A stretch of 58,064 nt of DNA from Salinisphaeraceae bacterium UBA4764 (GCA_002403445.1 DHHU01000072.1:1-58064); one strand, 5' to 3'. Positions 1,919-48,607 are shown, counted from the stretch's first letter. The notes: generated by a model from the sequence alone, not told the origin. Translations and numbers: made by a program.

Positions 1919-2245
1919 TCATCTGAGTAGGGCGTCTTTGCTGGCGCGACGATTAGCGCCCCCAATACTCGCTTCGGCCACATCAAGTTTTGCCTGACAG
2001 GTCACGCAGTGCTGAACTCCAGGGATGGCCTGCCGACGGGCATCAGGAATTGTCTCGCCGCATTCGACGCAGGTTGTACGCGTCGATGCCGTGCTTCCGA
2101 GATGCGCTCGCGCCGTAGCCACGGCATCGCTAACGGTTTGATCGATCTGTTCTTGAACAGCGCCATCTTTTGCCCAGCCTGATGCCATAACATTCTCCGC
2201 TCGGCGCATGCCAATCGAGGCACTATAACCGACTTCGATAATCAA
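1919..2245 (-). CDS. TraR/DksA-family C4-type zinc-finger protein
   Basis: Four-Cys finger CVECGETIPDARRQAIPGVQHCVTCQ near the C-terminus of a small protein. The TTG at 2245 overlaps the upstream stop (TTGA). In-frame ATGs at 2209 and 2188 are alternative starts. Confidence 0.75.
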   Translation of the reverse strand: MIIEVGYSASIGMRRAENVMASGWAKDGAVQEQIDQTVSDAVATARAHLGSTASTRTTCVECGETIPDARRQAIPGVQHCVTCQAKLDVAEASIGGANRRASKDALLR

Positions 2246-2745
2246 TCGCCATCCGATGACGGCCGGTTGACCTTAGCCTCGCCGCGTTTGTTACCCAACT
2301 GATCCACTAGTTTAACTCGATTATAGTCGCCCTTTGGCGGGCTGAATGCAATACAGCGCGAGTTCAGCGCATCGCTAACGTGGGCATTCAAACCTGGGGC
2401 AGTCCACTTCATTGCTATAGTCAATGTGTTGTTTTTGATGTGGGTATGATCAGGTAATAGTTTAATGTTGTAACCGGACGATGCGCGTTGCCCCATTTCT
2501 GCCACAATTACGCCGTTACCATTAGCCATATCAGGTTTGAACGCACTGAGGTTGCGCTGGGCAATCCACTTGCCAAAAGCCGATGGCGTTGCAAAATAAT
2601 CCACGCTCGACGCCTGCGACGGCGTGCCGCAGTAATCAGTGGAAGCGATAACATGCATGTCGTGCCAATGCCCGCGTGGCAAAAGAGCACATCCCCCCAT
2701 AAGGACAACCACAAACAGACCGGTCAGCAGGCGGATAAACGTCAT
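2242..2745 (-). CDS. Putative lipoprotein, PrcB_C-like domain (tentative)
   Basis: Lipobox-like N-terminus LLTGLFVVVLMGGCALL. The segment VIVAEMGQRASSGYNIKLL...TLTIAMKWTAPG resembles the PrcB C-terminal domain. The family call is from memory only. Confidence 0.6.
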   Translation of the reverse strand: MTFIRLLTGLFVVVLMGGCALLPRGHWHDMHVIASTDYCGTPSQASSVDYFATPSAFGKWIAQRNLSAFKPDMANGNGVIVAEMGQRASSGYNIKLLPDHTHIKNNTLTIAMKWTAPGLNAHVSDALNSRCIAFSPPKGDYNRVKLVDQLGNKRGEAKVNRPSSDGD

Positions 2746-10633: not shown

Positions 10634-10869
10634 TTTGGAGACTATATTCTAGCAACCCAGAACGCTTCGAGGTCGAAACCGTCGGAACATGGTGGCGGGT
10701 CTGATCGCCGCGGTGCCGCACTTCGATCGGGTCTTCATGCCGAGCTTTTGCTGCCTAAGCGATTACTGCCTTATGAGCGATCAAAACTTCTCGCAAAATC
10801 GATTTGAAATTAACACGCAGGTGATTATCCCATGTGGCAGCCATTGCCAACCGACATGATAAGTAAGGG

Positions 10870-11965
10870 TCAAATAGGAAGCGTCAGCAGTGTCACGATC
10901 AGAAATGGCGCAGTCAACACCAAACCGACTTTGATGTACTGACCCCAGCCGATGTGATGGCTCTTTCCGTCCAGCACATGCAGGCCAAAAACAAGGGGGC
11001 CTGGCTATCGGTCAGGGTAAATTTTTGGCCCCAGATTGGTTGTGGTGATATTGGCATAGACCATGAGCTTTCGCGTTAGCTCCGGAACATGGGCAAGTTT
11101 GAGGGCCAGCACATCGACAAGCGTCGATGGCAGGTTGTTCATGAAGGAATCGAGGGCTGCCGGCAGAATACCGGCACCAAGCGTGGCGGCAATAAAGTTC
11201 GGCTGTCCCAGCCAAGTAAGTGTAGAGGCATCTTAATCCATAAGCTCGGCACTGCCCGTTACCAAGAGGTACATTACGCGGAACTTCGCCGAGCCGTGAA
11301 TCGCGGCAGCGAGCATATCAAGCACCTATACAAGTCACGAAGGACAAATACAGACCAAATGCCAGCCACATCAGGCCGAGCGTGGTAACCATCGGGGCCC
11401 CATCCACAGCGACCATGACCGACACGTACTGATCGAACGTGACCTCGAAAAATTTGCGCTAATGATGCCCACGAGATTAGAAGTCACCAAGGGCAGACTC
11501 GCCATATCTGCCATGAAACCGGTGGCGATGATTAAATCCAGTCCCGCCGTCCTGGGGAACTCTAGTCTGATTAGTTTGGCCGCCTTGATCGGCGTAAGTC
11601 GCAATGCTGCGCCATCGTTGGTATAAACACTGCGATCACCATGCCCAACAGTTCGAGTAGCGGCAACAGCAGGCGCCCGCAACCACTGAGCGCGCGAGAT
11701 GCCGTACCGGTTCGGTAACAAACTGGCTTCGTCGAGAATCAGCGAAACGATGATCAGGGCGAAGACCGTGAAAATCGCGTCCTAAACGATGTGCCACACT
11801 ACCCGAAATCAGCCCAGTCCACCACACCAGAAGCCAGTGCTACACCTGCGCCTCCAAATGCGATCCAACCGATGCCAGAATACTTCGGCTGCCATATGAC
11901 CAGCACAGCGTTACGATGAAGACTTGCAGCACGAGCGCGGCGAGAACTCCAGAAGCTAAAGCAAT
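10870..11965 (-). pseudogene. arsB: arsB-type arsenite efflux permease, disrupted by multiple frameshifts and stops
   Basis: ArsB-like segments are spread over three minus-strand frames: VLVIWQPKYSGIGWIAFGGAGVALASGVV, DAIFTVFALIIVSLILDEASLF, TNDGAALRLTPIKAA, ATGFMADMASLPLVTSNLVGIISANF, and the C-terminal GWGQYIKVGLVLTAPFLIVTLLTLPI followed by a stop at 10870. No single ORF spans them. Confidence 0.75.
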
Positions 11966-12472
11966 TCAGTGCGCTACTTGATTGACATATTTGGCAGTGG
12001 CTGCTGAGTTTACTCTGCCTTCGAGGAAGTGCTGCCACGGAGGATCGCCCCAGACGTACCTATGTCGGGTGAATGTCAGGGGTTATTGGCGCCGCTCGAG
12101 CCCAGACGGCACAGCGACTGATCCCTTATGCAGCAGTTACCATTAATCCGCTGAGAAGCTTGGGCACCGAGGCCTGATTGGCAAGAGAGTGCCTACCTTC
12201 CAGCGGCCCGTCGCATACCGCTGGTTGACGGCATTATGCCTAAGGCTATCGCCGGCACCTGGCGTCACCGTCAGCCTTATGCCTGCGGCTATCCATGGCC
12301 GTCCCATTTGCCGAACTTGACCATACGCCACCAAATTCCAAAGTCCCAACCTATGACGGCATGCCAAGGGGTGCAGGGCCTACGCGACGAAACGCTCAAT
12401 CGCATGCATTGCAGGCTTATATCGAATACCGCCGACATTCCTAGCCACTACCACTGCGGAATCATCCCCCCT

Positions 12473-13363
12473 TCAGGACTGGATAAGATCGCTCGACGAA
12501 CGCGCCAACAATTCAGTAATCAGCGGATTGGCAAACTGGCGCCGGACGCTGATGGCATAGAACTGTTCGTGGACATTGGGTAGATGCGCGTATTCAACCA
12601 AGGTCCCATCGGCGATTTCGTCACGCACCACGACTGGCGGTAAAATCGCTACAGCGGACGAGTCACGCGCCAACAAACGCAGCATCGCCATGTCGTCGAC
12701 TTCGGCCAACACATGAGGTTGAATCTCCCATTGTTCGAACAGCATATCGATTGCGATACGCACATCGCTGTGCTCACCAGGCAAGAGCACGCGAGCGTTA
12801 ACCAGATCATCGGGAAGTTGGAATGGAGTTGACCGTGGCCTGCCGAGTATGCTGACGGCCTGGCGGGCAATACGCCGACTCCGCCATGGCGTTTCAGCAC
12901 CACGCGGCACATCAGTGTTCGACAACACCAGATCGAGCCGATGGGTCGACAATTGCCCCAGCAAATCGTCGAGTCGGCCGGATTGCAATACCAGCGTCAC
13001 ATCCCCGCGGTCCATCAACGGAGCGATAAAACCTTCTTGAAAATTACGCGACAATGTGGCCATGGCGCCAATACGCAACGTTTGCCGCTGAGGGCCAAGC
13101 CCGTCACGCAGCACGGCCATGAGTTCATCACCACGATTGAAGATGGGCTCGGCATAAGCCAGAGCCACACGCCCAGCCTCGGTCAGCTCCAACCGCCTGC
13201 CAACGCGGTGGAACAACGCCTGACCGAAACTCGCCTCGAGTTGCCGAATCTGGCTCGACAACGCCGATTGTGAGACATGCAAGCGTTCGGCTGTTTCCGT
13301 GAGGTTGCCATGGATGGCCACTCGCCAAAAATAATAGAGGTGACGATAATTAAGCTGAGCCAT
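12473..13363 (-). CDS. LysR-family transcriptional regulator (NhaR-like N-terminus), divergent from dabBA
   Basis: The HTH region MAQLNYRHLYYFWRVAIHGNLTETAERLHVSQSALSSQIRQLE resembles NhaR-type LTTRs. Length 296 aa, with a substrate-binding domain. Confidence 0.88.
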   Translation of the reverse strand: MAQLNYRHLYYFWRVAIHGNLTETAERLHVSQSALSSQIRQLEASFGQALFHRVGRRLELTEAGRVALAYAEPIFNRGDELMAVLRDGLGPQRQTLRIGAMATLSRNFQEGFIAPLMDRGDVTLVLQSGRLDDLLGQLSTHRLDLVLSNTDVPRGAETPWRSRRIARQAVSILGRPRSTPFQLPDDLVNARVLLPGEHSDVRIAIDMLFEQWEIQPHVLAEVDDMAMLRLLARDSSAVAILPPVVVRDEIADGTLVEYAHLPNVHEQFYAISVRRQFANPLITELLARSSSDLIQS

Positions 13364-13459
13364 TGTTCTAAAAAAAAGAACGATTAAGCAGATAATAACT
13401 ATTTTTAATTAACGATCAATGCCGCTTACCCTAATGCCGCTATTCAATGCCGTACTGTC
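13364..13459. promoter_or_regulatory. AT-rich divergent control region between the LysR gene and dabB, with candidate LTTR box
   Basis: A 96-bp AT-rich spacer. It contains TTA-N9-TAA (13384-13398, fitting the generic T-N11-A LTTR motif) and the palindrome TTAATTAA (13405-13412). No promoter elements were verified. Confidence 0.3.
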
Positions 13460-15094
13460 ATGCCCATATTAGAACTCGTTACGGTCTGTCTGATCGCCGC
13501 TACGCCGTTTTGTTATCTGTTGGCCATGGCCTGTAGTTTAGCGCCGGTTAACAGCCGCATGGCCTCGTGGCCGCTAACACTCGGTCTGGCTGGCGCGGTG
13601 TTGGTTTCTGCGTTGCTTGCCAGCGCCATCACATTGTTTGCAGGTCCGTCACAAGCATTTGTCGCCACATTTCCCGGTATCGATCTTGAAGGCCTGGCGC
13701 CCAGTGTCCGCGTCGACGCACTGACACTTGCCATGCTGTCACTCATCGGTTACATCGGGATCGTGATCCTGATGTACTCGCGTCGCTATCTGGCGGGCGA
13801 CCCAGGCAAGGTCGATCCGCGCAGGCGTATGTATCGTCGCTGGTTCTCGGCTACCTTGGCCAGTGTCACGACACTGGTCATAACCAACCAGCTGTGGCTA
13901 CTCGCCCTAGCCTGGATTGCCACCAGCCTGTGTCTACATAAGCTATTGGCCTATTATGACCAGCGCCCGCAGGCCTTGTTGGCTGCACACAAGAAGTTTT
14001 TGAGCAGCCGATTAACTGACACTTTCATCTTAATCGGCGTTTTCCTCATTGGTCGACACTTTGGAACGTTCGAGATTAACGCCGTCTTTGCCACTGCTGC
14101 CCAAACACCGTGGACAGTAACGCTGACCATCGCCTGTGCACTACTGGCCTGTGCCGCCATCCTGAAATGCGCGCAACTCCCGTTCCACGGCTGGTTGATT
14201 CAGGTGATGGAAGCCCCGACCCCCGTCTCCGCACTACTCCATGCCGGTATCGTCAACATCGGCGGTTTCTTGATGATTCGTTTCGCTCCGCTGATGGCGC
14301 CTGCCACATTTGCGCAGACCCTGCTAATCATTGCCGGCACCACGACTGCTGTAACCGCCGGGTTGATCATGTCGACCCGCGTCAGCATCAAGGTGATGCT
14401 GGCTTGGTCGACTTGCGCGCAGATGGGCTTTATGTTGCTGGAATGCGGGCTCGGACTTTACGGCCTGGCACTACTTCACTTGTTGGCCCACTCGCTCTAC
14501 AAGGCGCATTCATTCCTGACTGCGGGAGAAATGGCCGCTATCTCGGCGCGCCGGGCCCGGACGCCAGCAGTTGGCCAATCGGTTATTTCAGGCTTCGGCT
14601 GGGGCCTGGTATCCGTTAGCGCTGGGTTTCTGGCAGTCGTGGTGTTCATATGGCCCCAAATCACAGGTGGGCACCCGGCTGTAGTGGTCGTCGTCATTGG
14701 GGCCCTGGCTACTCTGGCCGGCGACGCGCTGGGAGCAAACAGGCTGTTGTGGCGACGCGTAATCGGAGCTGGCGTAGCCATTGCTTTGCTCTACGCATTC
14801 TGGTCGGCGTTGTTTAGTTTCCTTGAACCGACCCGGCCGCCACAAGATATCGCCGGCGCCGAAATCGGCGTAGCTATCGCGTTCGCTGGGCTATTCGCCT
14901 TGCGAGCGATTACAGGCAATAAACACGGCGCCCGACACCTACGTTGGTTACATCCGCACGTCTACGGCGGTTTTTATCTCGACCAGTTGTTTACCCGTCT
15001 TACACTCGTGATCTGGCCGCCAAGGCTGCGGCAACGACCTCAGTCGACGACATCTCCATTCTCAGCGGTCACACCACCCGAGCCCGAAGCATGA
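13460..15094 (+). CDS. dabB: DabB: proton-conducting membrane subunit of NuoL/MrpA type (PF00361-like), inorganic-carbon pump component
   Basis: 544-aa polytopic membrane protein with NuoL/NdhF-like motifs (WLIQVMEAPTPVSALLHAGIVNIGGFLMIRF, HLLAHSLYKAHSFL). No other complex I genes are nearby. Its stop overlaps the start of a DUF2309 gene (ATGA at 15091-15094). Confidence 0.85.
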   Translation: MPILELVTVCLIAATPFCYLLAMACSLAPVNSRMASWPLTLGLAGAVLVSALLASAITLFAGPSQAFVATFPGIDLEGLAPSVRVDALTLAMLSLIGYIGIVILMYSRRYLAGDPGKVDPRRRMYRRWFSATLASVTTLVITNQLWLLALAWIATSLCLHKLLAYYDQRPQALLAAHKKFLSSRLTDTFILIGVFLIGRHFGTFEINAVFATAAQTPWTVTLTIACALLACAAILKCAQLPFHGWLIQVMEAPTPVSALLHAGIVNIGGFLMIRFAPLMAPATFAQTLLIIAGTTTAVTAGLIMSTRVSIKVMLAWSTCAQMGFMLLECGLGLYGLALLHLLAHSLYKAHSFLTAGEMAAISARRARTPAVGQSVISGFGWGLVSVSAGFLAVVVFIWPQITGGHPAVVVVVIGALATLAGDALGANRLLWRRVIGAGVAIALLYAFWSALFSFLEPTRPPQDIAGAEIGVAIAFAGLFALRAITGNKHGARHLRWLHPHVYGGFYLDQLFTRLTLVIWPPRLRQRPQSTTSPFSAVTPPEPEA

Positions 15095-17583
15095 TTGATT
15101 CAAAGCAGCTTTGTCCTGAAACTATCCAAAGTTCTGTTAAAACAGCATGCGGACAGATTGCGCCGACCTGGCCACTGGATCGACAGGTGGCCGTCAACCC
15201 GCTCTGGCAACTGATTGATCGTCCCATAAGTCAGGCGGCCTCAATCTTAGCCGCTCGCGGAGGCGCGCGCGTCGTGCCCGATCGGAGTTATTTTCTGGAG
15301 CAATGGGAAAGAGGCCGCATACAGCGGGCCGATCTCGAGGCCGCGCGCAGCGAAGCCGGCATCGAAACAGGCGTTGATGAACTCTTGGCCAGTCTGGACC
15401 TAAAACCGGCAAGCGACCGACTGCAGCTGGTGGCCGATGTGCTCGATGCCGATCGTGATCTAACCCATCGGACAGCCTGGCGCGATGAGATCACGCATCA
15501 AATCAGTCAGCTTTGCGCGTCTGAGTTCGACCTCGGTCAAGGGGATTGGCCGGTAAGTCACCAGAAAAGTCTCTATCCAGCCTGGCAATACAATGTGGCA
15601 CGGGATCGTGGCATCCCGATTCTCATGGGCGAACCCGGTTTGCAGCAACATTTTCACCAGTTGCCCCCAGATGCCGATGCGCTGATTTTCGAGGCAGTGG
15701 AATTCATGAAAATTCCAGACGAATGCCTCGAAGCCTATTTACACGCTTTACTGTTGAGCATAAATGGCTGGGCGTCGTGGTGTGCCTATCTAGGCTGGCA
15801 GGCCAGCCTGGAGGCCAAAAATGACGCTAATCTGCACGAACTTTTGGCGGTTCGACTGGCTTGGGATCGAGTGCTATATGAACACGTAGCTACCGATGCG
15901 CAGCGGCATGCTTGGCACACGGATTTATTGCGCACTGATCGTCTTACGGCGCACCATCATCACGATCAGCAGATCGACTGGATCTGGCAGCGCGCCCTTG
16001 AAATGGGCTATCAGAAAACACTAGTGTCGCAGTTATCGCGTATCGATACGCCCCGTGCGATGCAAGATCGGCCTCCAAGCTTCCAGGCGGCGTTTTGCAT
16101 CGACGTACGCTCCGAGGTCTTTCGACGCTGTCTCGAGCATGTTGCAGGCAACGACGTCCAAACCTTGGGTTTTGCCGGGTTTTTCGGCGCGCCTATCGCC
16201 TATCAGCCCCACGGTCTTAGCCACGAGCAGCCGCAACTTCCGGGCCTCTTGGCTCCGAGTCTGACAGCCATTGAAACCCCGACGCGCGCCGCCGAGTCAG
16301 GCGCCGATACACTCGGGACCCTTGCCCGCCTGCGCCTTGGGGCAAAAGAACTGAGTCGTCGTTTTCGCTGGGGCCCGACGTCGACGTTTTCTTATGTTGA
16401 ATCGATGGGACTGTTCTATGCCTTCAAATTGTTCGTCGATGGGTTTTTGAAAAATCACGCCGACCATACCGATAACGGCCTCAATGAGGCCGAACGCCAG
16501 AAGTTGCAACTCGAGCTCGCACACGGCCCTACCGCGCTCTCGACCGAAGAGAAAACCGAACTCGCGGCCAGCATTCTGGCGGGCTTATCACTCACTCGAG
16601 ATTTTGCTCCGATCGTTTTGCTTGTTGGCCACGCGAGTGCCACGCGCAACAATCCGAAAGCGTCGACACTCGACTGCGGGGCCTGCTGCGGCCGCTCCGG
16701 CGAAGTCAACGCCCGCGTAGTGGCGAGACTGCTCAACGAGGCCGATGTCCGCGCCTCACTTGCGGCTAAGCATGACATTCGCATTGGCGACGATACTCAG
16801 TTCGTGGGGGGACTTCACAACACCACGACCGACGCGGTGTCACTATTTGATGTCGATGGTCTGGATAGCCGACAAACGCAAATGCTCGCGCAGGTGAAAC
16901 ACTGGCTCGAAGAGGCGCGCGTCGAGACCAACGCCGAACGTCTGCCCTGGCTTGATGAGATTCGTCAGCCCCGGCGCCATCAGAATGCCGGGGATATTCT
17001 GGCCCGACGAGGTAACGACTGGTCACAAGTCCGACCCGAATGGGGGCTGACCGGCAACGCCAGCCTGATCATCGCACCCCGTGCACGCACCCGCGAGCTG
17101 AATTTCGGAGGCCGAACTTTTTTGCACGACTATAACGAGGCCGAGGATCCTGATGGCAGTGTGCTGGAGACAATCCTGACCGCTCCCATGGTGGTGGCAC
17201 ACTGGATCAATTTTCAGTACTACGCCTCTACCGTTGACAACACCTTTTATGGCAGTGGGAACAAAACATTGCACAATGTCGCCGGCGGCCACATCGCGGT
17301 TTTCGAGGGCAACGGAGGTGATATGCGCATTGGCCTGTCGCTGCAATCACTCCACGACGGCGAGAAATGGATTCATGAACCACTGCGCCTAAGTGTCTTC
17401 GTTCAGGCATCGACACAGGCTATCGACCAAATCATGGCATCGCATGATAGCGTTCGTTATCTAGCCACTAACAAATGGTTATTTCTGTACGCCATAGGTG
17501 ACCCCGGTGAACCGATCCATCGTTTCATAGGCAGCGGCTGGCAGCCGATCGATGCCGAGAGCCACGCATCAGCCGAAGCCTGA
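15091..17583 (+). CDS. dabA: DabA: DUF2309/PF10070 protein, beta-carbonic-anhydrase-like subunit of the DAB inorganic-carbon pump
   Basis: 830 aa from the ATG at 15091 (MIDSKQLCPE...WPLDRQVAVNPLW). Candidate Zn ligands sit in the motifs AAFCIDVRSE (Cys336/Asp338, codon 16096-16098) and LLVGHASATRNNPKASTLDCGACCG (His514 at 16630-16632, Cys529). The His-to-Cys spacing of 15 matches my recollection of H. neapolitanus DabA2. Confidence 0.88.
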   Translation: MIDSKQLCPETIQSSVKTACGQIAPTWPLDRQVAVNPLWQLIDRPISQAASILAARGGARVVPDRSYFLEQWERGRIQRADLEAARSEAGIETGVDELLASLDLKPASDRLQLVADVLDADRDLTHRTAWRDEITHQISQLCASEFDLGQGDWPVSHQKSLYPAWQYNVARDRGIPILMGEPGLQQHFHQLPPDADALIFEAVEFMKIPDECLEAYLHALLLSINGWASWCAYLGWQASLEAKNDANLHELLAVRLAWDRVLYEHVATDAQRHAWHTDLLRTDRLTAHHHHDQQIDWIWQRALEMGYQKTLVSQLSRIDTPRAMQDRPPSFQAAFCIDVRSEVFRRCLEHVAGNDVQTLGFAGFFGAPIAYQPHGLSHEQPQLPGLLAPSLTAIETPTRAAESGADTLGTLARLRLGAKELSRRFRWGPTSTFSYVESMGLFYAFKLFVDGFLKNHADHTDNGLNEAERQKLQLELAHGPTALSTEEKTELAASILAGLSLTRDFAPIVLLVGHASATRNNPKASTLDCGACCGRSGEVNARVVARLLNEADVRASLAAKHDIRIGDDTQFVGGLHNTTTDAVSLFDVDGLDSRQTQMLAQVKHWLEEARVETNAERLPWLDEIRQPRRHQNAGDILARRGNDWSQVRPEWGLTGNASLIIAPRARTRELNFGGRTFLHDYNEAEDPDGSVLETILTAPMVVAHWINFQYYASTVDNTFYGSGNKTLHNVAGGHIAVFEGNGGDMRIGLSLQSLHDGEKWIHEPLRLSVFVQASTQAIDQIMASHDSVRYLATNKWLFLYAIGDPGEPIHRFIGSGWQPIDAESHASAEA

Positions 17584-17811: not shown

Positions 17812-19626
17812 TCAACCTTTACCGGCCTCTGAGGGGATTGTGGAATAAATCGTCTCGTCACGTTCGAACTGATCCTCCAGTTCTTCGATCGCTTCGCGAT
17901 CCAGCCGCGCCAGACGCTCTGCGTCGTCGGCCAATCGATAATACTCCCGAAGCCGACCTTCATCATATTGTCTAAATGTGCGGGCGGTGCGCTCGACTTC
18001 TTCATTGCCAAACCCGAGCGCACGCATGACATCACCGGCCAATGCCACGCTCGATAGAAATGTCTCGCGGTGGAATATCGTCACGCCGCGTTCCAGTAAT
18101 TGATAGCTGTGACGCCTGTCGCGGGCGCGCGCAACGATCTTCAAGTGTGGGAAATGGGTTTGCACCATGTGAATCGTGTTCAAAGATACGTCGGCGTCGG
18201 CTACCGCGAGAACTAGCACGCGTGCGCGATCGGCGTGCGCCGCCCGGAGCATCTCGACACGTGATGCATCGCCATAGTAAACCTCGGCACCGAATCGCCG
18301 CACGAAATTGACCTGTTCCGGATTGATTTCCAATGCCGTAAAGCCAATCCGCTTGGCGCGCAGAAGTCGAGCGATTGTACTGCCAAAACGCCCGAACCCA
18401 GCGATGATAACCGCATGTTCTGATTCAACTGGGGTCTCGTAAGCCTGTTTCGTCTCTATTGGGTTCAGACGTTCGTTGATCCAGGCACTGGCCTTGACCG
18501 AGAACGGCGTCAGCACCATCGAAAGCGTCACGGTGGCGATCAACAGGTCGGCCTCGGGCCGTGGTAGCAGGCGATCAGCCACTGCCGTTGATAGAATCAC
18601 GAAAGCGAATTCACCACCTTGGCTCAGATAGGCCCCTAGATTCCGGGTTGCGCGCCAGTCGAGACCCTGGCGGCGCCCGAGAAATACCAATATGATGGTT
18701 TTCAAGATCATAAGAGCAAAGGTCAAACCCAACAGGGCAACTGGCCGGCTGATGAACAGGCCCAGATTGATCGACATGCCAACGGCAATGAAAAACAGGC
18801 CTAGCAGTAGATCTTTGAACGGGTCGACGTTGGCTTCGAGTTCGTGCCGATATTCCGAATCGGCCAGCAGCACGCCCGCTACGAATGCTCCCAGCGCCAG
18901 GGATACACCAGTGGCTTCCATGATGGCCGAGGTGCCAACCACGATCAGCAGCGTCATGGCAATGAATATCTCTTGCATGCGCGTGGCCGCAATCACTCGC
19001 AACACCGGCTTCAAGACATAGTGACCGCCCATCACCAGCGCAGCAATCACGAGTGTTGCAGTTGCGGTCTTTTCCAGACCGCCTAAGATCGTGAACTTGG
19101 ACTGGCCAGCCGACAGCAAGGGCAACAACGCCAGAATCGGGATAACCGCCAGATCTTGAAACAAGAGGATAGAAAAAGCGGCCCGACCGTGGCGCGATGC
19201 CAGCTCGCCCCGTTCGGCGAGCATCTGGATTGCAAACGCTGTCGACGACAGCGCCAGCGACATCCCGGCCACAAATGACGCCGCAGGCGACAGTGACAAT
19301 GTCCAACCGACGACGACAGCCAGTACGAGACTCGTCAGAGCCATCTGCAGACCGCCCAGGCCGAGTATTGTACGGCGAAGCGCCCAAAGGCGTTTGGGCT
19401 GCATCTCCAAACCGATAATGAACAACAAAAACACAACGCCGAACTCAGCGAAATGCAGCACTTGATCGACCTGGCCGATCAAGCCCAGTACCCAAGGCCC
19501 GATCACTACACCGGCCACCAGATAGCCCAGTACCGACCCCAGCTTGAGGCGTTGGGCAATAGTTACGGCAATCACAGCGGCGCCAAGATAGATGGCAATA
19601 CGGGTAAGTGATGTATCCATGTTCAA
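17812..19626 (-). CDS. kefB: Glutathione-regulated K+ efflux / CPA2 monovalent cation:proton antiporter with C-terminal RCK (TrkA-N) domain
   Basis: The N-terminal half has about 12 TM segments. It is followed by a Rossmann motif VIIAGFGRFG and a KTN/RCK domain. Length 604 aa, typical of KefB/KefC. Confidence 0.88.
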   Translation of the reverse strand: MNMDTSLTRIAIYLGAAVIAVTIAQRLKLGSVLGYLVAGVVIGPWVLGLIGQVDQVLHFAEFGVVFLLFIIGLEMQPKRLWALRRTILGLGGLQMALTSLVLAVVVGWTLSLSPAASFVAGMSLALSSTAFAIQMLAERGELASRHGRAAFSILLFQDLAVIPILALLPLLSAGQSKFTILGGLEKTATATLVIAALVMGGHYVLKPVLRVIAATRMQEIFIAMTLLIVVGTSAIMEATGVSLALGAFVAGVLLADSEYRHELEANVDPFKDLLLGLFFIAVGMSINLGLFISRPVALLGLTFALMILKTIILVFLGRRQGLDWRATRNLGAYLSQGGEFAFVILSTAVADRLLPRPEADLLIATVTLSMVLTPFSVKASAWINERLNPIETKQAYETPVESEHAVIIAGFGRFGSTIARLLRAKRIGFTALEINPEQVNFVRRFGAEVYYGDASRVEMLRAAHADRARVLVLAVADADVSLNTIHMVQTHFPHLKIVARARDRRHSYQLLERGVTIFHRETFLSSVALAGDVMRALGFGNEEVERTARTFRQYDEGRLREYYRLADDAERLARLDREAIEELEDQFERDETIYSTIPSEAGKG

Positions 19627-19856: not shown

Positions 19857-20407
19857 CTATTCGGCTTCACTATGTTGTGGGTGATAGGTCATCCAGGTGC
19901 GCCTTTCGTAAATTGCGCGACCAAATGCAGCTAGAGCATAGCGAATGGCCTGTCACTCTTCTGGCCAGACCAAATCACAGAAGCAATGCTGTGCTAATGC
20001 ACGGATTGAGGATAATCAATCGCTTCAACGTAGGCCAGCGGCTGATAAAAAACGGCTGAAGCTTATAATTGTCGCGACCAACCCTAGCGGCGGCGACGAT
20101 TTCATCGAAGTCGACATCGGTACAAAACTGGCGAATCGCCCGGCAACCCCGTATCTGATCCGCTGAGCGAAACAGAATGCTTGTAGACGTCATATCCGCT
20201 CACGCCCTTGGCGCATCCAAGATAAGGGGCAATACGGGATACAGCACCGAACATCACTTGGATCGACACACGCCAAAATATGTCAACAACCCGGCCAAGA
20301 CATCTGTCTCTATTGCTCTTTGAACAGAAGCTATCAGCCCAGTAACAGACGTTCAGGGCGAACGACACCCGCCTGACTGAAAGTATTCCAAGTGCGTTGG
20401 GCGTCAA
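19857..20407 (-). pseudogene. Possible decayed gene of unrecognised family
   Basis: Protein-like stretches occur in three minus-strand frames, separated by stops or frameshifts: ADQIRGCRAIRQFCTDVDFDEIVAAARVGRDNYK, AVFYQPLAYVEAIDYPQSV, and QAIRYALAAFGRAIYERRTWMTYHPQHSEAE followed by a stop. There is no intact ORF over about 100 aa in an 850-bp gap. Confidence 0.25.
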
Positions 20408-20473
20408 AGCCCAAACTGAACGCCCCTTGCCAGTTCTGAACTGATTTTGGGCTTCTTAGCTTCACTGAGGCGA

Positions 20474-20824
20474 TCAATCGGAGCCAAGATGGAAAAACTC
20501 AACTGCCCGGCGGACACAGAAAACCTTGATGTTTTGTTCATGCACAGCTTCCAGAAGCTCATCAGCTAAGTCATCATCCACGATGAACATGAGTTCCTCG
20601 GGTTCATCGGTCAACTCAAAGAAATGTGCCGAATGCCTATGCTTATCCGTTCCCACGCTTTCGCTGTCCATGCGACGCGTATATCGATAGATACCGTGGG
20701 TCTTGGCTAGATCAACAATGGCGTCGAGGCTCATCTGTCCTTTGTGTCGATATGAACGCGGTGCCATGAAAATCAGTTCGAATCCTTGCATTGGAGGATT
20801 GTCTATACTGCAGAAACATGACAT
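20474..20824 (-). CDS. DUF190 (UPF0166) PII-like fold protein
   Basis: By eye it aligns along its length with DUF190 proteins. For example RHKGQMSLDAIVDLAKTHGI...HRHSAHFFELTDEPEELMFIVDDDLADELLEAV compares with TM0021-type KHSGKPLFEYLV...[25 protein letters not shown]. The start is uncertain (ATG at 20824 or 20791). Confidence 0.6.
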   Translation of the reverse strand: MSCFCSIDNPPMQGFELIFMAPRSYRHKGQMSLDAIVDLAKTHGIYRYTRRMDSESVGTDKHRHSAHFFELTDEPEELMFIVDDDLADELLEAVHEQNIKVFCVRRAVEFFHLGSD

Positions 20825-20997
20825 CAGAGTACGCCGGAATCGTACCCATGACCATCACCCGTTTCGCTTAAGCCAACGATCCGGAAACGTTTACCGAATC
20901 ATTCTTTGCATAGTCTCGCGTTCTTCAATCCGACAGCTGTTGTTGTTTAAGTTAGATTCAGCCCAGTTGGTAGTGTCACAATAGGTATTTATTTATC

Positions 20998-21561
20998 TTG
21001 ATTCTCATTCGGGCCCACTGGTTTCGAATTGTGAATTACACCGCTATCGACTCTCGTGTGAGTAAATTAACCTTACCCGTCGAACGTTATCTAGCCCAAG
21101 CAATCGAGCAACGCTCGCCGGGCCCTGTCGCCTGGGTCGATCCCAGTAGACGGACCCCGATTTCGGGACTTGAAATAGTCAGTAAAGCCGATTGCCAGAT
21201 TAACTCACTGGACCCGCCCGATATTCCGGCCAGCACTACCGGCCAATCCACACCCTTCGAATTGGCCGTTGTAATCGATCCTGCGGCGGAGTACACGCGC
21301 CACGAGGCCGAGCGACTCCTGGCTTACTTTCGGGATTTTGGCGCCCGCGCTGTGCTGGTTCTGGAACAACAGGCCACCACCACACTCGGTGGCACCTCCG
21401 CCTATATCGCGCTGGGTTTCAAGCGGGCTCGCGGGAGTGAAACGCTGGACGCCAATTATTGTCTCTACGAATTCGATATACACAACTACAAGCCGGTTCC
21501 CAGCTGGCTCAATTCCAAAAACTGGGCTAACCCCGAACAATGGGGCAAGACTCGTTGGTAA
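20998..21561 (+). CDS. Conserved hypothetical protein with Trp-rich C-terminal motif
   Basis: 187-aa ORF with a distinctive C-terminus, YEFDIHNYKPVPSWLNSKNWANPEQWGKTRW. I believe this recurs in a proteobacterial DUF family (possibly DUF6231, unverified). The start is uncertain (TTG at 20998, GTG at 21058). Confidence 0.55.
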   Translation: MILIRAHWFRIVNYTAIDSRVSKLTLPVERYLAQAIEQRSPGPVAWVDPSRRTPISGLEIVSKADCQINSLDPPDIPASTTGQSTPFELAVVIDPAAEYTRHEAERLLAYFRDFGARAVLVLEQQATTTLGGTSAYIALGFKRARGSETLDANYCLYEFDIHNYKPVPSWLNSKNWANPEQWGKTRW

Positions 21562-25934: not shown

Positions 25935-27749
25935 CTAGAGCATTTCCTCCCACGAGCGGCTAAGGCGTAAGGCCGCATTGATGATACCCACCATACTGTA
26001 GGTCTGCGGAAAATTTCCCCAGAGTTCGCCCGTGTCAGGATCGATATCCTCCGATAACAGGCCCAAGGCGTTGCGATTGGCCAACATATTCTCGAACAGA
26101 CGGTTGGCTTCGGCGCGCTGACCGGTCGCGGCGAGTGCTTCGATATACCAGAAGGTGCAGATGTTGAAGGCGTTTTCCGGTTCACCAAAGTCGTCTTGGG
26201 CCGCATAGCGAAACAGATAGTCACCACGTCGCAGAACGCGACCCACGGCTTCTACCGTTCCCAAAAAGCGCGGATCGTCGGGTGGCAGAAACCCCAGCTC
26301 GTTCATTAACAACAGGCTGGCGTCAATGTCGCGGCCCTCGAAGGATTCGACGAAGCTGTTTTGTTCCTCGTTCCAGCCGCGCCGGCAAATGACATCGTGT
26401 ATTTCACGGGCCGCGTCGCGCCAACGCTCGGCGTCGGCCTCGAGCTGCAACTCGGCAGCAATACGGGCCAGCCGATCACATGCGACCCAGCACAAAAGTG
26501 CCGAGTGAGTGTGAACGCGGGTACGTCCCCGATATTCCCAAATGCCGGCGTCGGGCGTCAGATAGTTGGCGTAGGCTTTTTCCCCGAGGGGTTCCAGCTG
26601 ACGAAATAACGATACATCGCCCGGCCGCGGTAACCGCCGATCGAAAAATATCTGAGTGGCCGCCAGAATGACGCTGCCATAGACATCGTGCTGAATCTGA
26701 CGGTAGGCATCGTTGCCGACCCGAACGGGGGCTGTGTTGCGGTAGCCCGTGAGATGGGTCACATGCCATTCGTCCAGCCTGCTTTCACCGGTCACGCCGT
26801 AGACGGGTTGAAGTTGACCGTCGTCGCTGTCGGCGACACAGTCCAGAATAAATCGGATATAGTCTTCCATCGAACGCGTGGCCCCCAAGCGGTTCAGCGC
26901 ACGTACCACGAAATAGGCGTCGCGTAACCAGCAATGCCGGTAATCCCAGTTGCGCTCGGTGCCAGCCGCCTCGGGGATGGACGTAGTCAGAGCAGCGACC
27001 ACGGCGCCGGTTTCAGCGTAGCTCGAAAGCTTCAGGGTAATGGCGGCCCGGATGACGGCCTGTTGCCAATCATAGGGGATCGACAGGCTGCGCACCCATT
27101 GACGCCAGGAATCGCGGGTGCGCTCCAGGAAAGACCGAGCCAACGTAGCCGGCGATTCGGTCAAGGATTCATCCGGCCCGAATATCAACGTCTGCGTTCC
27201 AACCAATCCGAACGCGCGCTCTTCAAGAATCCTGCTGACTGGAATATCCGTGGTGAGTCGAAGCGACTGTTCGTCGGTTAAATACCGGATATGATGGGAA
27301 CCCCGGGTCATACGCGGCTGCTCACTGCCCCAGTTGCAGACCGGGCGCAACCGGATACGCACGCGGGGTGAACCGGCTTCGACGCTGACCTGGCGCACCA
27401 GTGCTATTGGTCGGTAGTTACGGTCGTATTGCTCGAATCCGGGCGCAAAATCGATGACGGATACTTGGCCGCCATGGGCGTCCTGGAGGCGCGTCTGCAG
27501 GATTGCGGTGTTGTGCAAATAGCACTGCGTACTCGATACACAATCCTCCAATTCCACGGCGTAATACCCACGATCGGTTTCATCGATCAAACGTGAAAAC
27601 AGCGGATCGCCGGCAAAGCCGGGGAAACAGCCCCAGACGATGCGTGCGCGCTCGTCGACCAGTGCAGCCACCTGACCGTTGCCGATCAAGCCAATATTGA
27701 GGGAACTGGTCACCCCGTACCCAGTGTCGTCGTCAGTGTACGAAGCCAT
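25935..27749 (-). CDS. Glycoside hydrolase family 15 protein (glucoamylase/trehalase-like)
   Basis: 604 aa with GH15-type (alpha/alpha)6 motifs (WDYRHCWLRDA, GIWEYRG, LLSEDIDP...GNFPQTYSMVG). Lies in an apparent operon with otsB. Confidence 0.85.
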   Translation of the reverse strand: MASYTDDDTGYGVTSSLNIGLIGNGQVAALVDERARIVWGCFPGFAGDPLFSRLIDETDRGYYAVELEDCVSSTQCYLHNTAILQTRLQDAHGGQVSVIDFAPGFEQYDRNYRPIALVRQVSVEAGSPRVRIRLRPVCNWGSEQPRMTRGSHHIRYLTDEQSLRLTTDIPVSRILEERAFGLVGTQTLIFGPDESLTESPATLARSFLERTRDSWRQWVRSLSIPYDWQQAVIRAAITLKLSSYAETGAVVAALTTSIPEAAGTERNWDYRHCWLRDAYFVVRALNRLGATRSMEDYIRFILDCVADSDDGQLQPVYGVTGESRLDEWHVTHLTGYRNTAPVRVGNDAYRQIQHDVYGSVILAATQIFFDRRLPRPGDVSLFRQLEPLGEKAYANYLTPDAGIWEYRGRTRVHTHSALLCWVACDRLARIAAELQLEADAERWRDAAREIHDVICRRGWNEEQNSFVESFEGRDIDASLLLMNELGFLPPDDPRFLGTVEAVGRVLRRGDYLFRYAAQDDFGEPENAFNICTFWYIEALAATGQRAEANRLFENMLANRNALGLLSEDIDPDTGELWGNFPQTYSMVGIINAALRLSRSWEEML

Positions 27750-28462
27750 TGATGTACCTCGTCGACGTTGGCGAGACCATATTTCGCCAACGTTTGTTGA
27801 TGCGTGTCGTCGCCGACTCGAATGCCGAAACCCTTCAAGGCATTGACCGCGCGAAAACCGTCTTCGTCGGTTAGATCATCGCCAACGAATACCGGAATCC
27901 GGCCCGTGAACGGCGTATCGGCCATAAACGTTTCTATAGCGGTGCCCTTGTTACAGCCAACGGGTTTGAGTTCCAGTACAGACTTTCCGGCAACAGTCTC
28001 CAACTCATTGGGGAACTGCTTCACGATTTGGCTGGCGAAAGCGCGCACGCGCTTTGCCATTCCCGGTGCATTACGATAATGAAGGGCTATGCCGGATATC
28101 TTATCTTCAACATAGACACCGGGATGATCATGCGCCAAAGCGCGGGCCTGCACAGCGGCACGCTCGAGCGCCCTCAATTGGTCCGGTGCCCGTAGAACCC
28201 GCCCATCGGCCGCGCGGACCTGCTGGCCATGAAGGCCGGCTACGGCCAAGGCGTTGGCCCCTAAAAGGCGTTCAATGTTTTCGATAGAACGGCCGCTTAC
28301 CAAGGCTAGCGCACCGTTCAACACTTCGGCCACTTGATGTAGGCTGTTGACAAGACCAAAAACCGGCTGAACATGATCAGGGTGATCGGCTAAGTGAATC
28401 AAGGTTCCATCGACGTCCAAAAAAAGGGCCCAGTTCGAGCTGGGCTCGGGAAGATGTTGCAT
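27710..28462 (-). CDS. otsB: Trehalose-6-phosphate phosphatase
   Basis: The ATG at 28462 gives [31 protein letters not shown], which aligns with the E. coli OtsB N-terminus and HAD motif I. ALALVSGRS is motif II and GDDLTDE is motif IV. The ORF-track start at 28717 is an antisense-overlap extension. Confidence 0.85.
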   Translation of the reverse strand: MQHLPEPSSNWALFLDVDGTLIHLADHPDHVQPVFGLVNSLHQVAEVLNGALALVSGRSIENIERLLGANALAVAGLHGQQVRAADGRVLRAPDQLRALERAAVQARALAHDHPGVYVEDKISGIALHYRNAPGMAKRVRAFASQIVKQFPNELETVAGKSVLELKPVGCNKGTAIETFMADTPFTGRIPVFVGDDLTDEDGFRAVNALKGFGIRVGDDTHQQTLAKYGLANVDEVHQWLRTLTTTLGTG

Positions 28463-29945
28463 GACAGCTGAAGATAACCGTGAAACGCCGCTAAGCCAAC
28501 CCCGCTCCCACGGAATCATTATGGTTTCAAACCGGCTGCCGGTTTCGCTCAAGCGCAATGAAAACGGTGCCTGGCGGGCTGAACCGGCCTCGGGCGGGCT
28601 GATTGCAGCACTCAATCCGGTCATGCGCGAACGTGGTGGCGTCTGGATCGGCTGGCCCGGCGTGGCCGAGTCAAACACGGAAACATTGCAGGAAGCTCTC
28701 GACGAGGCGTATCGCACGAATGTCGATTACCGGCTGGATCCGGTTGCGCTGTCGGAGACCGAAATTCAAGAATTCTACGAAGGCTTTTCCAACCAGATCA
28801 TCTGGCCGCTGTTTCATAACCAGCTCTATGCCTGCAACTTTGATCCGGCATTCTGGCGCACCTACCAGACCGTCAACCAACGCTTTGCCGAGCGTGTGTG
28901 TGATGCGGCCGAGGCAGAAGATTTCATCTGGATCCATGACTATCATCTAATCAACGTCGCGGCCGGTCTACACGAACTGGGCGTCGACAATCGTATTGGC
29001 TTCTTTTTGCATATTCCGTTTCCGACGGTGGACATTTTTATCAATCTACCGTGGTGGCGCGATATGCTGTATTCATTGCTGGCATACGATTTTATCGGGC
29101 TACAGACAAAATCCGATCGTGATAATTTCATCGCCTGTATTGGCGCAATGTTCGACAGCGTTGTGCAAACGCAGAGCTCCGATTGCATCAGCCTGACGAT
29201 CGAAGATGACACGCTGCCCGAGCGTTTACGCTACGTGGGAGTCGGCGCATTAGCCATTAGCATCGACTATCCTGAGGTAACGAAAGCCGCCGGTGGCGAA
29301 GACGCCGAGTCGTTTAAGCGCACTTATCGCAAGATGTGGAGCGCGCGGCAAATTGTGTTAGGAGTCGACCGACTCGACTACACCAAGGGCCTGCCGCGCA
29401 AGTTCGAAGCCTTCCGCAATGCACTCCAGCGTTACCCCGAGCTTCGCTCCAATATTTCACTTGATCAACACGTTATTCCCTCGCGCGAGCAAGTTCCACA
29501 GTATGCCGAACAAAAAATGGAAATCGAACGGCTTGTCGGCGAAATCAACGGTGAATTAACCGAACCCGGCTGGGTACCGATTCACTACATTTTTCATCGC
29601 ATGACACCGGCCGAACTGATGGCCTACTACCGCGTCGCCGATATTGCGCTGATCACACCTTTGAAAGATGGCATGAACCTGGTCGCCAAAGAGTATTGCG
29701 CAGCCAAAGTCGATGAAACCGGCGTTTTAATTCTAAGTGAATTCGCGGGCGTGGCAGATGAGTTCGGCAGTAACGCGTTGCTGGTCAACCCCAACGATAT
29801 CGAAGCCATGGCCGACCGGATTGTGGAAGCCTACCGGATGACCGAAGATGAACGCTCAAGGCGGATGCGGCCGATGCGCAAACAGGTGCGTGACAACGAC
29901 GCGTTCAAATGGGTCGATCGTTTCCTGGCCGCTGCCGATGCCTAG
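28461..29945 (+). CDS. otsA: Alpha,alpha-trehalose-phosphate synthase (GT20)
   Basis: MVSNRLP...ASGGLIAAL aligns with E. coli OtsA VVVSNRIAPP...SAGGLAVG, and GT20 motifs run throughout. The start is either the ATG at 28461 or the ATG at 28521 (MVSNRLP). Confidence 0.9.
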
Positions 29946-39672: not shown

Positions 39673-39763
39673 GTATCCCAATAAATAGCAAAAGGGTTGA
39701 ACTACAAGTATAACGATCGGTGTTTTCTTGACTCATTCAAAAAAACAACGGACAATTTTGCTC

Positions 39764-40189
39764 ATGTCAAATTACGGCTACACCGTTAACTTATTGCACC
39801 AGAATGGTTTGCGGGCGACGGTGCCTCGTCAATGGGTCCTGGCATGGTTGGTTGACCATCCGCACGCAACGGCTGAACAGGTCTATTACGGGACATGCGA
39901 ACAGCTCGGTTCGATTTCTAAGCAAGCCGTGTACGACGTACTGGCTGATTGTATGAATGTCCAACTGGTTCGCCAAATCAAACCATCCGGTCATCCGGCA
40001 CGCTTTGAGCGGCGTACCGGCGACAATCATCATCACATGGTATGTCGCGGTTGCGGTCTCATTCATGATGTCGACTGTGTGCGGGGTGCCAAACCCTGTC
40101 TGACGCCTGACCACGATCACGATTTCACCATTGATGAAGCCGAAGTCGTGTTCTGGGGTCTCTGCCCAACCTGTGTGCAAAGCGCGTGA
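39764..40189 (+). CDS. Fur-family metalloregulator (FurA/PerR-like) upstream of katG
   Basis: A winged-helix N-terminus, a His-rich stretch GDNHHHMVC, and two CxxC pairs (CRGCG, CPTC) are typical of the Fur family. The ATG at 39764 is used; the ORF-track start at 39728 is TTG. Confidence 0.8.
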   Translation: MSNYGYTVNLLHQNGLRATVPRQWVLAWLVDHPHATAEQVYYGTCEQLGSISKQAVYDVLADCMNVQLVRQIKPSGHPARFERRTGDNHHHMVCRGCGLIHDVDCVRGAKPCLTPDHDHDFTIDEAEVVFWGLCPTCVQSA

Positions 40190-40273
40190 TGGCTCGCCAT
40201 CCCCACACTCCGGATCAGCCTCCCACAACTCCACTACAACCCCAAGTTAAGTCAAAACATAGAGGATAGACCG

Positions 40274-44147: not shown

Positions 44148-44191
44148 GACGCGGTAACGCCGTAGCCCATGATTTTAATTTTAGGTCAACC

Positions 44192-45511: not shown

Positions 45512-45569
45512 GTGATGAGGTCCTGGTAGATCGTTTTCGGGTTGATTCAGCCTTGACTTGCAAAAAACG

Positions 45570-48509: not shown

Positions 48510-48607
48510 AAGTCGGCGCGGTAGTACAAAATGCTTGAGCCCGCCGGTTGCGGCCTCGTTATACGACAAATTATAACAAACCCCGTTGCTCAAGCACGGC
48601 AGCGAGA

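Follow-up and report, generated by a model that had tools for sequence, protein, structure and literature searches.

The 58,064-nucleotide stretch of DNA analysed here, from Salinisphaeraceae bacterium UBA4764 (GCA_002403445.1, DHHU01000072.1:1-58064) and hereafter called the window, carries at positions 12473 to 17583 a three-gene locus that very likely encodes a DAB-type inorganic-carbon pump together with its regulator. The regulator gene (lysR, 12473-13363, minus strand, 296 amino acids (aa)) belongs to the LysR-type transcriptional regulators (LTTRs) and was called from the open reading frame (ORF) list and its PF00126 and PF03466 domains. A divergent control region of 96 bp (13364-13459), which is AT-rich (65.6% AT compared with 45.4% for the whole window), separates it from dabB (13460-15094, plus strand), whose 544-aa product is a NuoL-like membrane subunit and putative proton conductor recognized by PF00361, PF00662 and a DabB2 match. 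The third gene, dabA (15091-17583, plus strand), encodes an 830-aa beta-carbonic-anhydrase-like catalytic subunit with a predicted membrane-inserting finger, recognized by PF10070 and a DabA2 match. The dabB stop and the dabA start overlap in an ATGA (15091-15094, plus strand), which was read straight from the sequence and is the arrangement expected of translational coupling. An earlier interpretation made without database searches, here called the sequence-only reading, had described this geometry, and the ORF list and the raw sequence confirm it in every coordinate and length. The longest frame for dabA opens at a TTG at 14944 (879 aa); the ATG at 15091 is preferred because an independent gene call of the Joint Genome Institute (JGI) supports it, because the PF10070 profile begins at residue 16, and because the dabB/dabA junction overlaps by 4-8 nt in relatives. 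The GC profile across the module (0.55-0.59) is the same as that of its flanks and gives no compositional sign of a recent horizontal acquisition of the module.

The assignment of DabA is based on profile and structure matches. The PF10070 profile is covered from position 1 to position 747 of 747 (830.1 bits, with a cut-off of 25; E = 2.6e-249) and DabB matches PF00361 (E = 1.8e-41, 143 bits) as well as PF00662, so the search with PF10070 and PF00361 that the sequence-only reading had proposed returned both families. The best match of DabA in the Protein Data Bank (PDB) is H. neapolitanus DabA2, chain A of 9rd0, which was solved by cryo-electron microscopy (cryo-EM); the match covers residues 15-820 of the query (E = 3.5e-170), with an identity of about 43% (336 of 783 aligned positions). 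Functional residues were taken from the DAB2 and DAB1 structure papers and mapped through HMMER alignments by a script checked against the translation. All 21 of the DabA2 functional residues that were checked are identical in DabA in the alignment to 9rd0_A. The zinc ligands C336, H514 and C529 align with DabA2 C351, H524 and C539, and the Asp-Arg dyad D338-R340 aligns with D353 and R355, S341 being identical as well. According to the DAB2 cryo-EM paper, C351, D353, H524 and C539 of DabA2 build the zinc site and the Asp-Arg dyad (bioRxiv 10.64898/2026.03.13.711513). The sequence-only reading had picked out these residues as a Cys-x-Asp pair (C336 and D338, in AAFCIDVR) and a His...Cys pair 15 residues apart (H514 and C529, in VGHAS...LDCGACCG) and had proposed aligning them with DabA2; all four fall exactly on the corresponding positions.

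The conservation extends beyond the metal site. The water-network residues H576 and D581 are identical to those of DabA2, as is L653, which stands where canonical beta-carbonic anhydrases (beta-CAs) have a bicarbonate-stabilising Gln or His. The residues of the CO2 tunnel (F361, A362, F364, H679, V691, I695, A698 and P699) and of the exit gate (L621, R648 and W651) are also identical, and the finger glutamate E437, located in FSYVES, corresponds to the essential E444 of DabA2 within a finger segment that aligns without gaps. In the solved homolog this helix-loop-helix finger enters the membrane; the description of DabA as a plain soluble protein in the sequence-only reading is therefore not borne out, and a membrane-inserting finger is predicted here too. 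The three DAB-specific motifs defined in the structure paper (the lid GxxGFFG, NNPxxxxLDCGACxG and DWxxxRPEWGL) are all present, as GFAGFFG (360), NNPKASTLDCGACCG (520) and DWSQVRPEWGL (643), and the functional positions show no variation among 12 diverse homologs that were aligned (44-57% identity). The closest named DabA proteins are those of Salinisphaera (56-58% identity), and the next-best DabA overall reaches 61%.

The membrane subunit shows a similar pattern. The best PDB match of DabB is DabB2 (9rd0_B, E = 4.2e-73, residues 41-542; about 43% of the first 382 aligned positions are identical), compared with E = 2.5e-37 or weaker for the NuoL/ND5 chains of complex I and 1.8e-22 or weaker for MrpA chains; the DabB2 chain thus leads all NuoL/ND5 matches by 36 orders of magnitude in E-value. 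The eight DabB2 proton-path and ion-pair residues that were checked are all identical: I153, R184, D187, K236, H261, H340, H344 and K348 correspond to DabB2 I151, R182, D185, K235, H260, H339, H343 and K347. I153 occupies the place of NuoL Glu144, D187 and K236 form the Lys-Asp ion pair, H261 is the counterpart of the essential H260, and H340, H344 and K348 make up the triad of transmembrane helix 11 (TM11). Two other identities were considered and rejected for DabB: as a complex I NuoL it scores 219 bits with the NuoL model (cut-off 556), and as an MrpA it scores 140 bits (cut-off 937), while NuoL proteins are typically about 610 aa and MrpA proteins about 800 aa long, both with a long lateral helix and a C-terminal extension. 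Moreover, Pfam scans of all ORFs of at least 150 aa and several smaller ones in the 58-kb window found no other nuo or mrp genes, as the sequence-only reading had stated. One NCBIfam model named 'NADH-quinone oxidoreductase subunit L' (NF006029) does pass on DabB (456 bits, cut-off 380), although the true NuoL models fail; its name appears to be a legacy misnomer for the DabB-type family, and annotation pipelines that use this model would label DabB as NuoL.

The subtype of the complex can be predicted from the composition of the operon. In DAB1 operons a small membrane protein, DabC, is encoded as the third subunit and is needed where it is present; DAB2 operons are devoid of it (2026 cryo-EM papers). 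DabC has no Pfam model, so its absence was judged from the lack of any candidate ORF: between or after dabB and dabA only short overlapping frames were found, and the JGI gene calls agree. In addition, the NNP motif of DabA reads NNPKAST and so carries DabA2-type changes at the YESA positions. Given the lack of a DabC gene, the order dabB then dabA and the DabA2-type substitutions in this motif, the locus is predicted to encode a two-subunit DabB/DabA heterodimer of DAB2 type.

We consider it very likely that the locus as a whole represents a DAB2-type vectorial carbonic anhydrase of two subunits, with DabB in the membrane and DabA at its cytoplasmic face, accompanied by a dedicated LysR regulator. 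The DAB-pump proposal of the sequence-only reading is thus sustained by the full-length PF10070 match, the identity of all the DabA2 and DabB2 residues checked, and DabB2 as the best structural match. From the family membership, residue conservation, gene architecture and regulator-operator co-conservation, which were observed directly, we infer the proton coupling, the ion specificity, the direction of regulation, the effector and the physiological role; the mechanism is drawn by homology from the structures of DAB2 (H. neapolitanus) and DAB1 (T. albus). By this homology, CO2 diffusing into the cell would reach the buried Cys2-His-water zinc site of DabA (C336, H514 and C529, with the D338-R340 dyad) through the hydrophobic tunnel, and its hydration to bicarbonate would be gated by protons flowing down their gradient through DabB (K236, H261, H340, H344 and K348). 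The finger (E437) and the NNP...LDCGAC and DW...RPEWGL loops would couple the DabB channel to the active site, such that proton passage would gate substrate access and product release, hydration would run one way and bicarbonate would accumulate in the cytoplasm. The ATGA overlap may favour co-translation and roughly equimolar amounts of DabB and DabA, in line with the published 1:1 complex. The sequence-only reading held that coupling and stoichiometry are poorly understood; this view is outdated, as the DAB2 and DAB1 cryo-EM studies of 2026 address both. It has also been reported that most of the DAB homologs screened rescue carbonic-anhydrase-free E. coli (DAB structure literature).

The same proton path bears on the possibility that the system works in reverse, with an exergonic YbcC/DabA reaction driving ion export through the NuoL-like subunit to make membrane potential. 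This was the original COGNAT hypothesis (PMC5700660) and it fits the name 'membrane potential-generating system' given to MpsAB. Nevertheless, the uptake mediated by DAB is sensitive to carbonyl cyanide m-chlorophenylhydrazone (CCCP), catalysis strictly requires the DabB proton residue H260, and CO2 hydration by the purified complex requires a gradient (2026 DAB cryo-EM papers). Since the H260-type proton residues are all conserved here, we regard reverse operation as extremely unlikely and retain proton-driven CO2 hydration as the expected activity.

Special attention was given to the regulator. The LysR protein contains both PF00126 (HTH_1, E = 1e-22) and PF03466 (LysR_substrate, E = 8e-18) and, with the divergent 96-bp spacer and a conserved T-N11-A dyad described below, presents the features of an LTTR that is predicted to bind DNA. 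Among the NCBIfam models NhaR (NF008284) scores best, with 143.5 bits where its cut-off demands 219, and CynR comes second. The label 'NhaR-like' used in the sequence-only reading therefore holds as a statement of the nearest curated family, but not of family membership, since the score falls below the cut-off and lysR has no nhaA gene next to it. Of the LTTRs with a solved structure, 5y2v, a 'Rubisco operon transcriptional regulator', comes closest, with a weak match of 58 bits; this resemblance is a lead and no evidence of orthology.

The association of this regulator with dabBA is conserved. A LysR gene (296-305 aa), a spacer of 96-97 bp (lengths measured from gene calls) and the dabB-dabA pair recur in Salinisphaera sp. 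LB1, S. hydrothermalis and one metagenome relative, while all the other flanking genes differ between these three module-bearing relatives and the window. We also conducted a genome scan using one genome per GTDB species, which yielded at least 80 further loci ranked by score; it covers genomes other than the window's contig and those of Salinisphaera, and it is no census. Loci were counted as informative if dabB precedes dabA and the sequence upstream extends for 1.1 kb or more; 66 of the matches listed qualify. A divergent LysR lies upstream of dabB in 49 of these 66, spread over many phyla, and 48 of the 49 score 230-640 bits against the LysR of the window. The exception, in Undibacterium sp. 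(L013:3214-4164), is a divergent LTTR with only 31 bits, within the range of about 30 bits that an unrelated LTTR would give; it may represent a non-orthologous regulator replacement at the same position. The scores of LysR and DabA co-vary among the matches listed (Spearman 0.54, p = 1e-4). The module kept amid unrelated flanks and the frequency of the divergent LysR back the suggestion of the sequence-only reading that the LTTR is dedicated to the pair, and LysR is the probable dedicated regulator of dabBA. The association is real but not new: the COGNAT paper of 2017 described as 'clade A' the nuoL-like/ybcC (COG3002) pairs with a reverse-oriented LysR (COG0583) at their 5' side (PMC5700660). 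As to its 'clade B', no PII (GlnB) gene was found 3' of dabA in the 86 loci fetched, a result that says nothing on clade B itself. In the literature searched, no paper was found that characterises this DAB-associated LysR or its site. A B. subtilis study states that the regulation of DAB/MpsAB systems is still to be explored (bioRxiv 10.64898/2026.09.08.750065), and the remark in the sequence-only reading that regulation is poorly understood continues to hold.

The region beyond lysR has to be considered when evaluating this association. On the side away from dabB, just past the 3' end of lysR, lies a decayed arsB-type (PF02040) permease gene (approximately 10860-12065, minus strand), made up of three collinear fragments at 11799-12038, 11371-11721 and 11005-11142 that correspond to profile positions 10-43, 105-166 and 333-375 and occupy at least two frames. 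The remnant fills a 1.85-kb ORF-poor stretch between the signal recognition particle (SRP) RNA gene and lysR; an assembly frameshift is possible. LTTRs are abundant and often stand beside unrelated genes. LysR might then be adjacent to dabBA by chance, or be the regulator of the frameshifted permease, with no control over the pair. This explanation appears very improbable: the arsB remnant does not accompany the module in any of the relatives, where LysR, spacer and dabBA are kept together, and an orthologous divergent LysR occurs in 49 of 66 loci across phyla (among the matches listed). Furthermore, the dyad of the spacer is found alongside LysR and is missing from loci that have no LysR, and COGNAT saw the same association independently.

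A further alternative involves the coupling ion: the pair could be an MpsAB-like Na+-coupled bicarbonate transporter or cation-translocating system, with the regulator sensing Na+ or alkaline pH in a salt-adapted host. MpsAB shares the Pfam pair and is reported to complement a Na+-transporter-deficient strain, unlike DAB2. NhaR is the nearest curated family of the regulator, and the closest named relatives belong to salt-adapted taxa such as Salinisphaera, Halomonas and Vreelandella. We know of no sequence marker of Na+ coupling in the DAB/MpsAB family. On the other hand, all the DabB2/NuoL proton-path residues and the full zinc-site and CO2-tunnel architecture of DabA2 are kept, which favours CO2 hydration over bicarbonate transport, and the regulator falls well below the NhaR cut-off, with CynR as the next model. 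Na+ coupling is consequently judged improbable, and proton-coupled CO2 hydration remains the preferred explanation.

The spacer contains a candidate binding site for the regulator. An operator-like dyad, GTTCTAAAAAAAAGAAC (13365-13381), of the form GTTCT-N7-AGAAC and of the T-N11-A LTTR-box type, has invariant arms in a four-way alignment of spacers; a single nucleotide separates it from the lysR start codon, and the centre of the dyad lies 87 nt upstream of the dabB ATG. The dyad has a single match in the window, but this uniqueness carries no weight because about 1.2 matches are expected by chance, and only cross-locus conservation counts. At nine or more of its ten positions the dyad is present in 16 of 45 independent LysR-bearing loci and is perfect in nine of them, compared with a mean of 0.2 and a maximum of 2 for shuffled spacers; among the loci that bear it are those of Myxococcota, Planctomycetota, Alteromonadaceae, Alcanivorax, Halomonas and Methyloversatilis. 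When the 220 nt upstream of dabB were scanned without regard to strand, it was found at the same threshold in 17 of the 50 loci outside the LysR-less set and in none of the 17 LysR-less loci. This conserved candidate operator for a DAB-associated LTTR, absent from loci without LysR, is new here.

Other elements of the spacer are more speculative. A second conserved AT block, ATAACTATTTTTAATTAAC (13395-13413), corresponds to a cluster of invariant columns (56-73) of the four closest spacers aligned and may serve as an activation-binding site or as the -35 region of the dabB promoter. A consensus scan gave a sigma-70-like promoter match toward lysR (TTGATC-16-TATTAT, 13392-13419, minus strand, 9 of 12 positions); if used, it would set the dyad in the lysR leader, which might correspond to the usual layout of LTTR autorepression. 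The same scan found no sigma-70 promoter for dabB inside the spacer, and two plus-strand promoter-like matches were not adopted, as both lie inside the lysR coding region. LysR would most likely bind GTTCT-N7-AGAAC beside its own start, repress itself and activate dabBA in response to a signal tied to the supply of inorganic carbon.

The genes that surround the module provide information about its host. The Pfam scans of the window found no RuBisCO, carboxysome or carbonic anhydrase genes in the ORFs covered, with small shell genes (about 100 aa) not strictly excluded below 150 aa; this agrees with the sequence-only reading, which had noted no RuBisCO or carboxysome genes within 58 kb. A complete sucA-sucB-lpd cluster, encoding the E1, E2 and E3 components of 2-oxoglutarate dehydrogenase, is located at 42681-48593 (minus strand). 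Obligate chemolithoautotrophs are usually devoid of 2-oxoglutarate dehydrogenase, and the presence of this cluster makes the host probably a heterotroph or a facultative autotroph. The window corresponds to a contig of a JGI metagenome (3300011368, Ga0119950_10003; Logan SRR1574693). DabA, DabB, LysR and SucB (44192-45511) are each a singleton cluster at 90% identity among about 15 billion proteins and occur on a single long contig; together with a next-best DabA of only 61% identity, this indicates that the host lineage is very sparsely sampled.

These observations bear on the physiological role rather than on the mechanism. The same pump could feed an autotrophic CO2-concentrating mechanism, with RuBisCO, with or without carboxysomes, encoded elsewhere in the genome and LysR belonging to a low-CO2 regulon. 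Facultative autotrophy has been described for the relative S. hydrothermalis, and the closest solved LTTR, 5y2v, is cyanobacterial. DabA is most often found in genomes with Form I RuBisCO, but many DabA genomes are devoid of RuBisCO (bioRxiv 10.1101/476713), and the 5y2v match is weak. In addition, the 58 kb analysed contain sucA-sucB-lpd and no RuBisCO or carboxysome gene that we could find, and the module is surrounded by housekeeping or unrelated genes in every relative examined. An autotrophic role is, in our opinion, unlikely. With sucAB-lpd in the window and no RuBisCO found, the likeliest role of the DAB2-type pump would be to provide carboxylases with bicarbonate when CO2 is low, its host being a heterotroph or a facultative autotroph; DABs without RuBisCO nearby are well documented in published heterotrophs and halophiles.

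Several points weigh against the interpretation of the locus as a DAB2-type pump under a dedicated LysR. Its function is read from sequence, and the identity to the characterised DabA2 is just about 43%. The homologous MpsAB of S. aureus has been argued to be a Na+-using bicarbonate transporter, and the coupling ion is a matter that sequence alone cannot settle. The view is limited to this contig, which leaves room for an autotrophic CO2-concentrating role. As for the regulatory part, the dyad reaches nine of ten positions in only about one third of the LysR-bearing loci, so the operator consensus would be looser than GTTCT-N7-AGAAC or would differ by clade; the promoter assignments rest on consensus matches, and a consensus scan found no terminator 3' of dabA.

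The remainder of the window looks like ordinary chromosome and contains genes for an M48 peptidase, APS kinase, two photolyase-family proteins, RNase T, RecR, YbaB and DnaX, as well as GluQRS, purA, hflXKC, miaA, mutL, uvrC, a type II secretion system (T2SS) ATPase and clpB; its RNA genes are the SRP RNA and three tRNAs. A gene for a KefB/KefC-type K+/H+ antiporter (Na_H_Exchanger and TrkA_N domains; 17812-19626, minus strand) is convergent with dabA at a distance of 228 bp; it does not adjoin dabBA in Salinisphaera or other relatives and is probably unrelated to the module. The GC content dips to 0.489 at 20000-20999 (about 0.55-0.58 in neighbouring windows), where only two unannotated calls of 73 and 105 aa are found, upstream of a DUF6231 gene. 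A Fur-family regulator gene (PF01475, 153 aa) directly precedes katG, which encodes a catalase-peroxidase of 749 aa, in the same orientation (39728-42523, plus strand), and the two look like a PerR-like peroxide regulator with its target. In a trehalose cluster (25935-29945), otsA on the plus strand is divergent from otsB and a GH15 glucoamylase/trehalase-like gene, both of which are on the minus strand; the longest otsB and otsA ORFs overlap by about 250 bp, which means that at least one true start is further downstream. Finally, for a 167-aa ORF (2242-2745, minus strand) beside the APS kinase gene, Pfam gives no match, not even with a threshold of E = 0.01.

Few known machines for energy-coupled CO2 capture are as simple as DAB pumps, which are candidates for building CO2-concentrating mechanisms in crops and industrial microbes. 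Earlier publications already cover the DAB family and its structure, the fact that it occurs in heterotrophs and halophiles, and its LysR neighbourhood; what is new here is a divergent intact member and the candidate operator, the locus being otherwise an ordinary member of the DabB/DabA family. It adds a DAB2-type pair from a poorly sampled lineage and leaves the picture of the mechanism unchanged, whereas the co-conserved LTTR with its candidate operator offers a testable handle on DAB/MpsAB gene control. The LysR-dabBA cassette occurs, among the matches listed, in Gammaproteobacteria, Burkholderiales, Myxococcota, Planctomycetota, Gemmatimonadales and Acidimicrobiales metagenome-assembled genomes. 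We tentatively suggest, as a real possibility that we would not yet favour, that LysR, GTTCT-N7-AGAAC and dabBA form a self-contained and widespread three-gene cassette in which the LTTR directly senses CO2, bicarbonate or a carboxylation-linked metabolite. If this is true, no CO2-responsive transcription switch of a DAB pump would have been defined earlier outside cyanobacteria, and the cassette would also give engineering a portable part that low CO2 induces.

A comparison with known systems places the locus closest to H. neapolitanus DAB2, whose structures (PDB 9rd0, 9rd8 and 9rd9) were reported by Lo et al. 2026 (bioRxiv 10.64898/2026.03.13.711513; Nat Commun PMC13144422), following the earlier work of Desmarais et al. 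(bioRxiv 10.1101/476713). Both have the two genes dabB-dabA without DabC and share an identical zinc site, dyad, Leu, tunnel bottleneck, finger Glu and DabB proton path. They differ in that the N-terminal helical domain is divergent and that the window has no carboxysome or RuBisCO genes nearby and possesses 2-oxoglutarate dehydrogenase; moreover, its LysR is adjacent and divergent, whereas the high-CO2-requiring LysR genes of H. neapolitanus are drawn in a genomic context apart from DAB2. The DAB1 complexes of T. albus and H. neapolitanus (Phillips et al. 2026, bioRxiv 10.64898/2026.05.01.722082) have in common with the locus the buried beta-CA-like site, the G-x-(A/G)-GFFG lid, the DW(xxx)RPEWGL motif and a NuoL-like DabB; unlike the window, which has no DabC ORF and reads NNPKASTLDCGACCG, they require DabC and keep NNPYESALDCGACGG strictly.

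The cyanobacterial NDH-1 MS/MS' systems (NdhF3/D3/CupA) resemble the locus by analogy, as they combine a NuoL/NdhF-type subunit with a vectorial CO2-hydrating protein. They are under LTTR control (NdhR/CcmR). However, CupA is unrelated to DabA, and their energy coupling is redox-linked within NDH-1. The S. aureus MpsAB and B. subtilis NdhF-MpsB(YbcC) pairs, likened here by their Pfam pair and description, are reported to supply bicarbonate at atmospheric CO2 in heterotrophs and to be functionally interchangeable with carbonic anhydrase (PMC6689103; bioRxiv 10.64898/2026.09.08.750065); these Firmicute operons are described without a LysR, and that of B. subtilis includes a canonical beta-CA, canC. 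In gene order, the locus matches exactly the COGNAT clade A, with a reverse-oriented LysR at the 5' end followed by nuoL-like and ybcC genes (PMC5700660); that paper precedes the functional assignment and gives no operator, for which the dyad identified here is a candidate.

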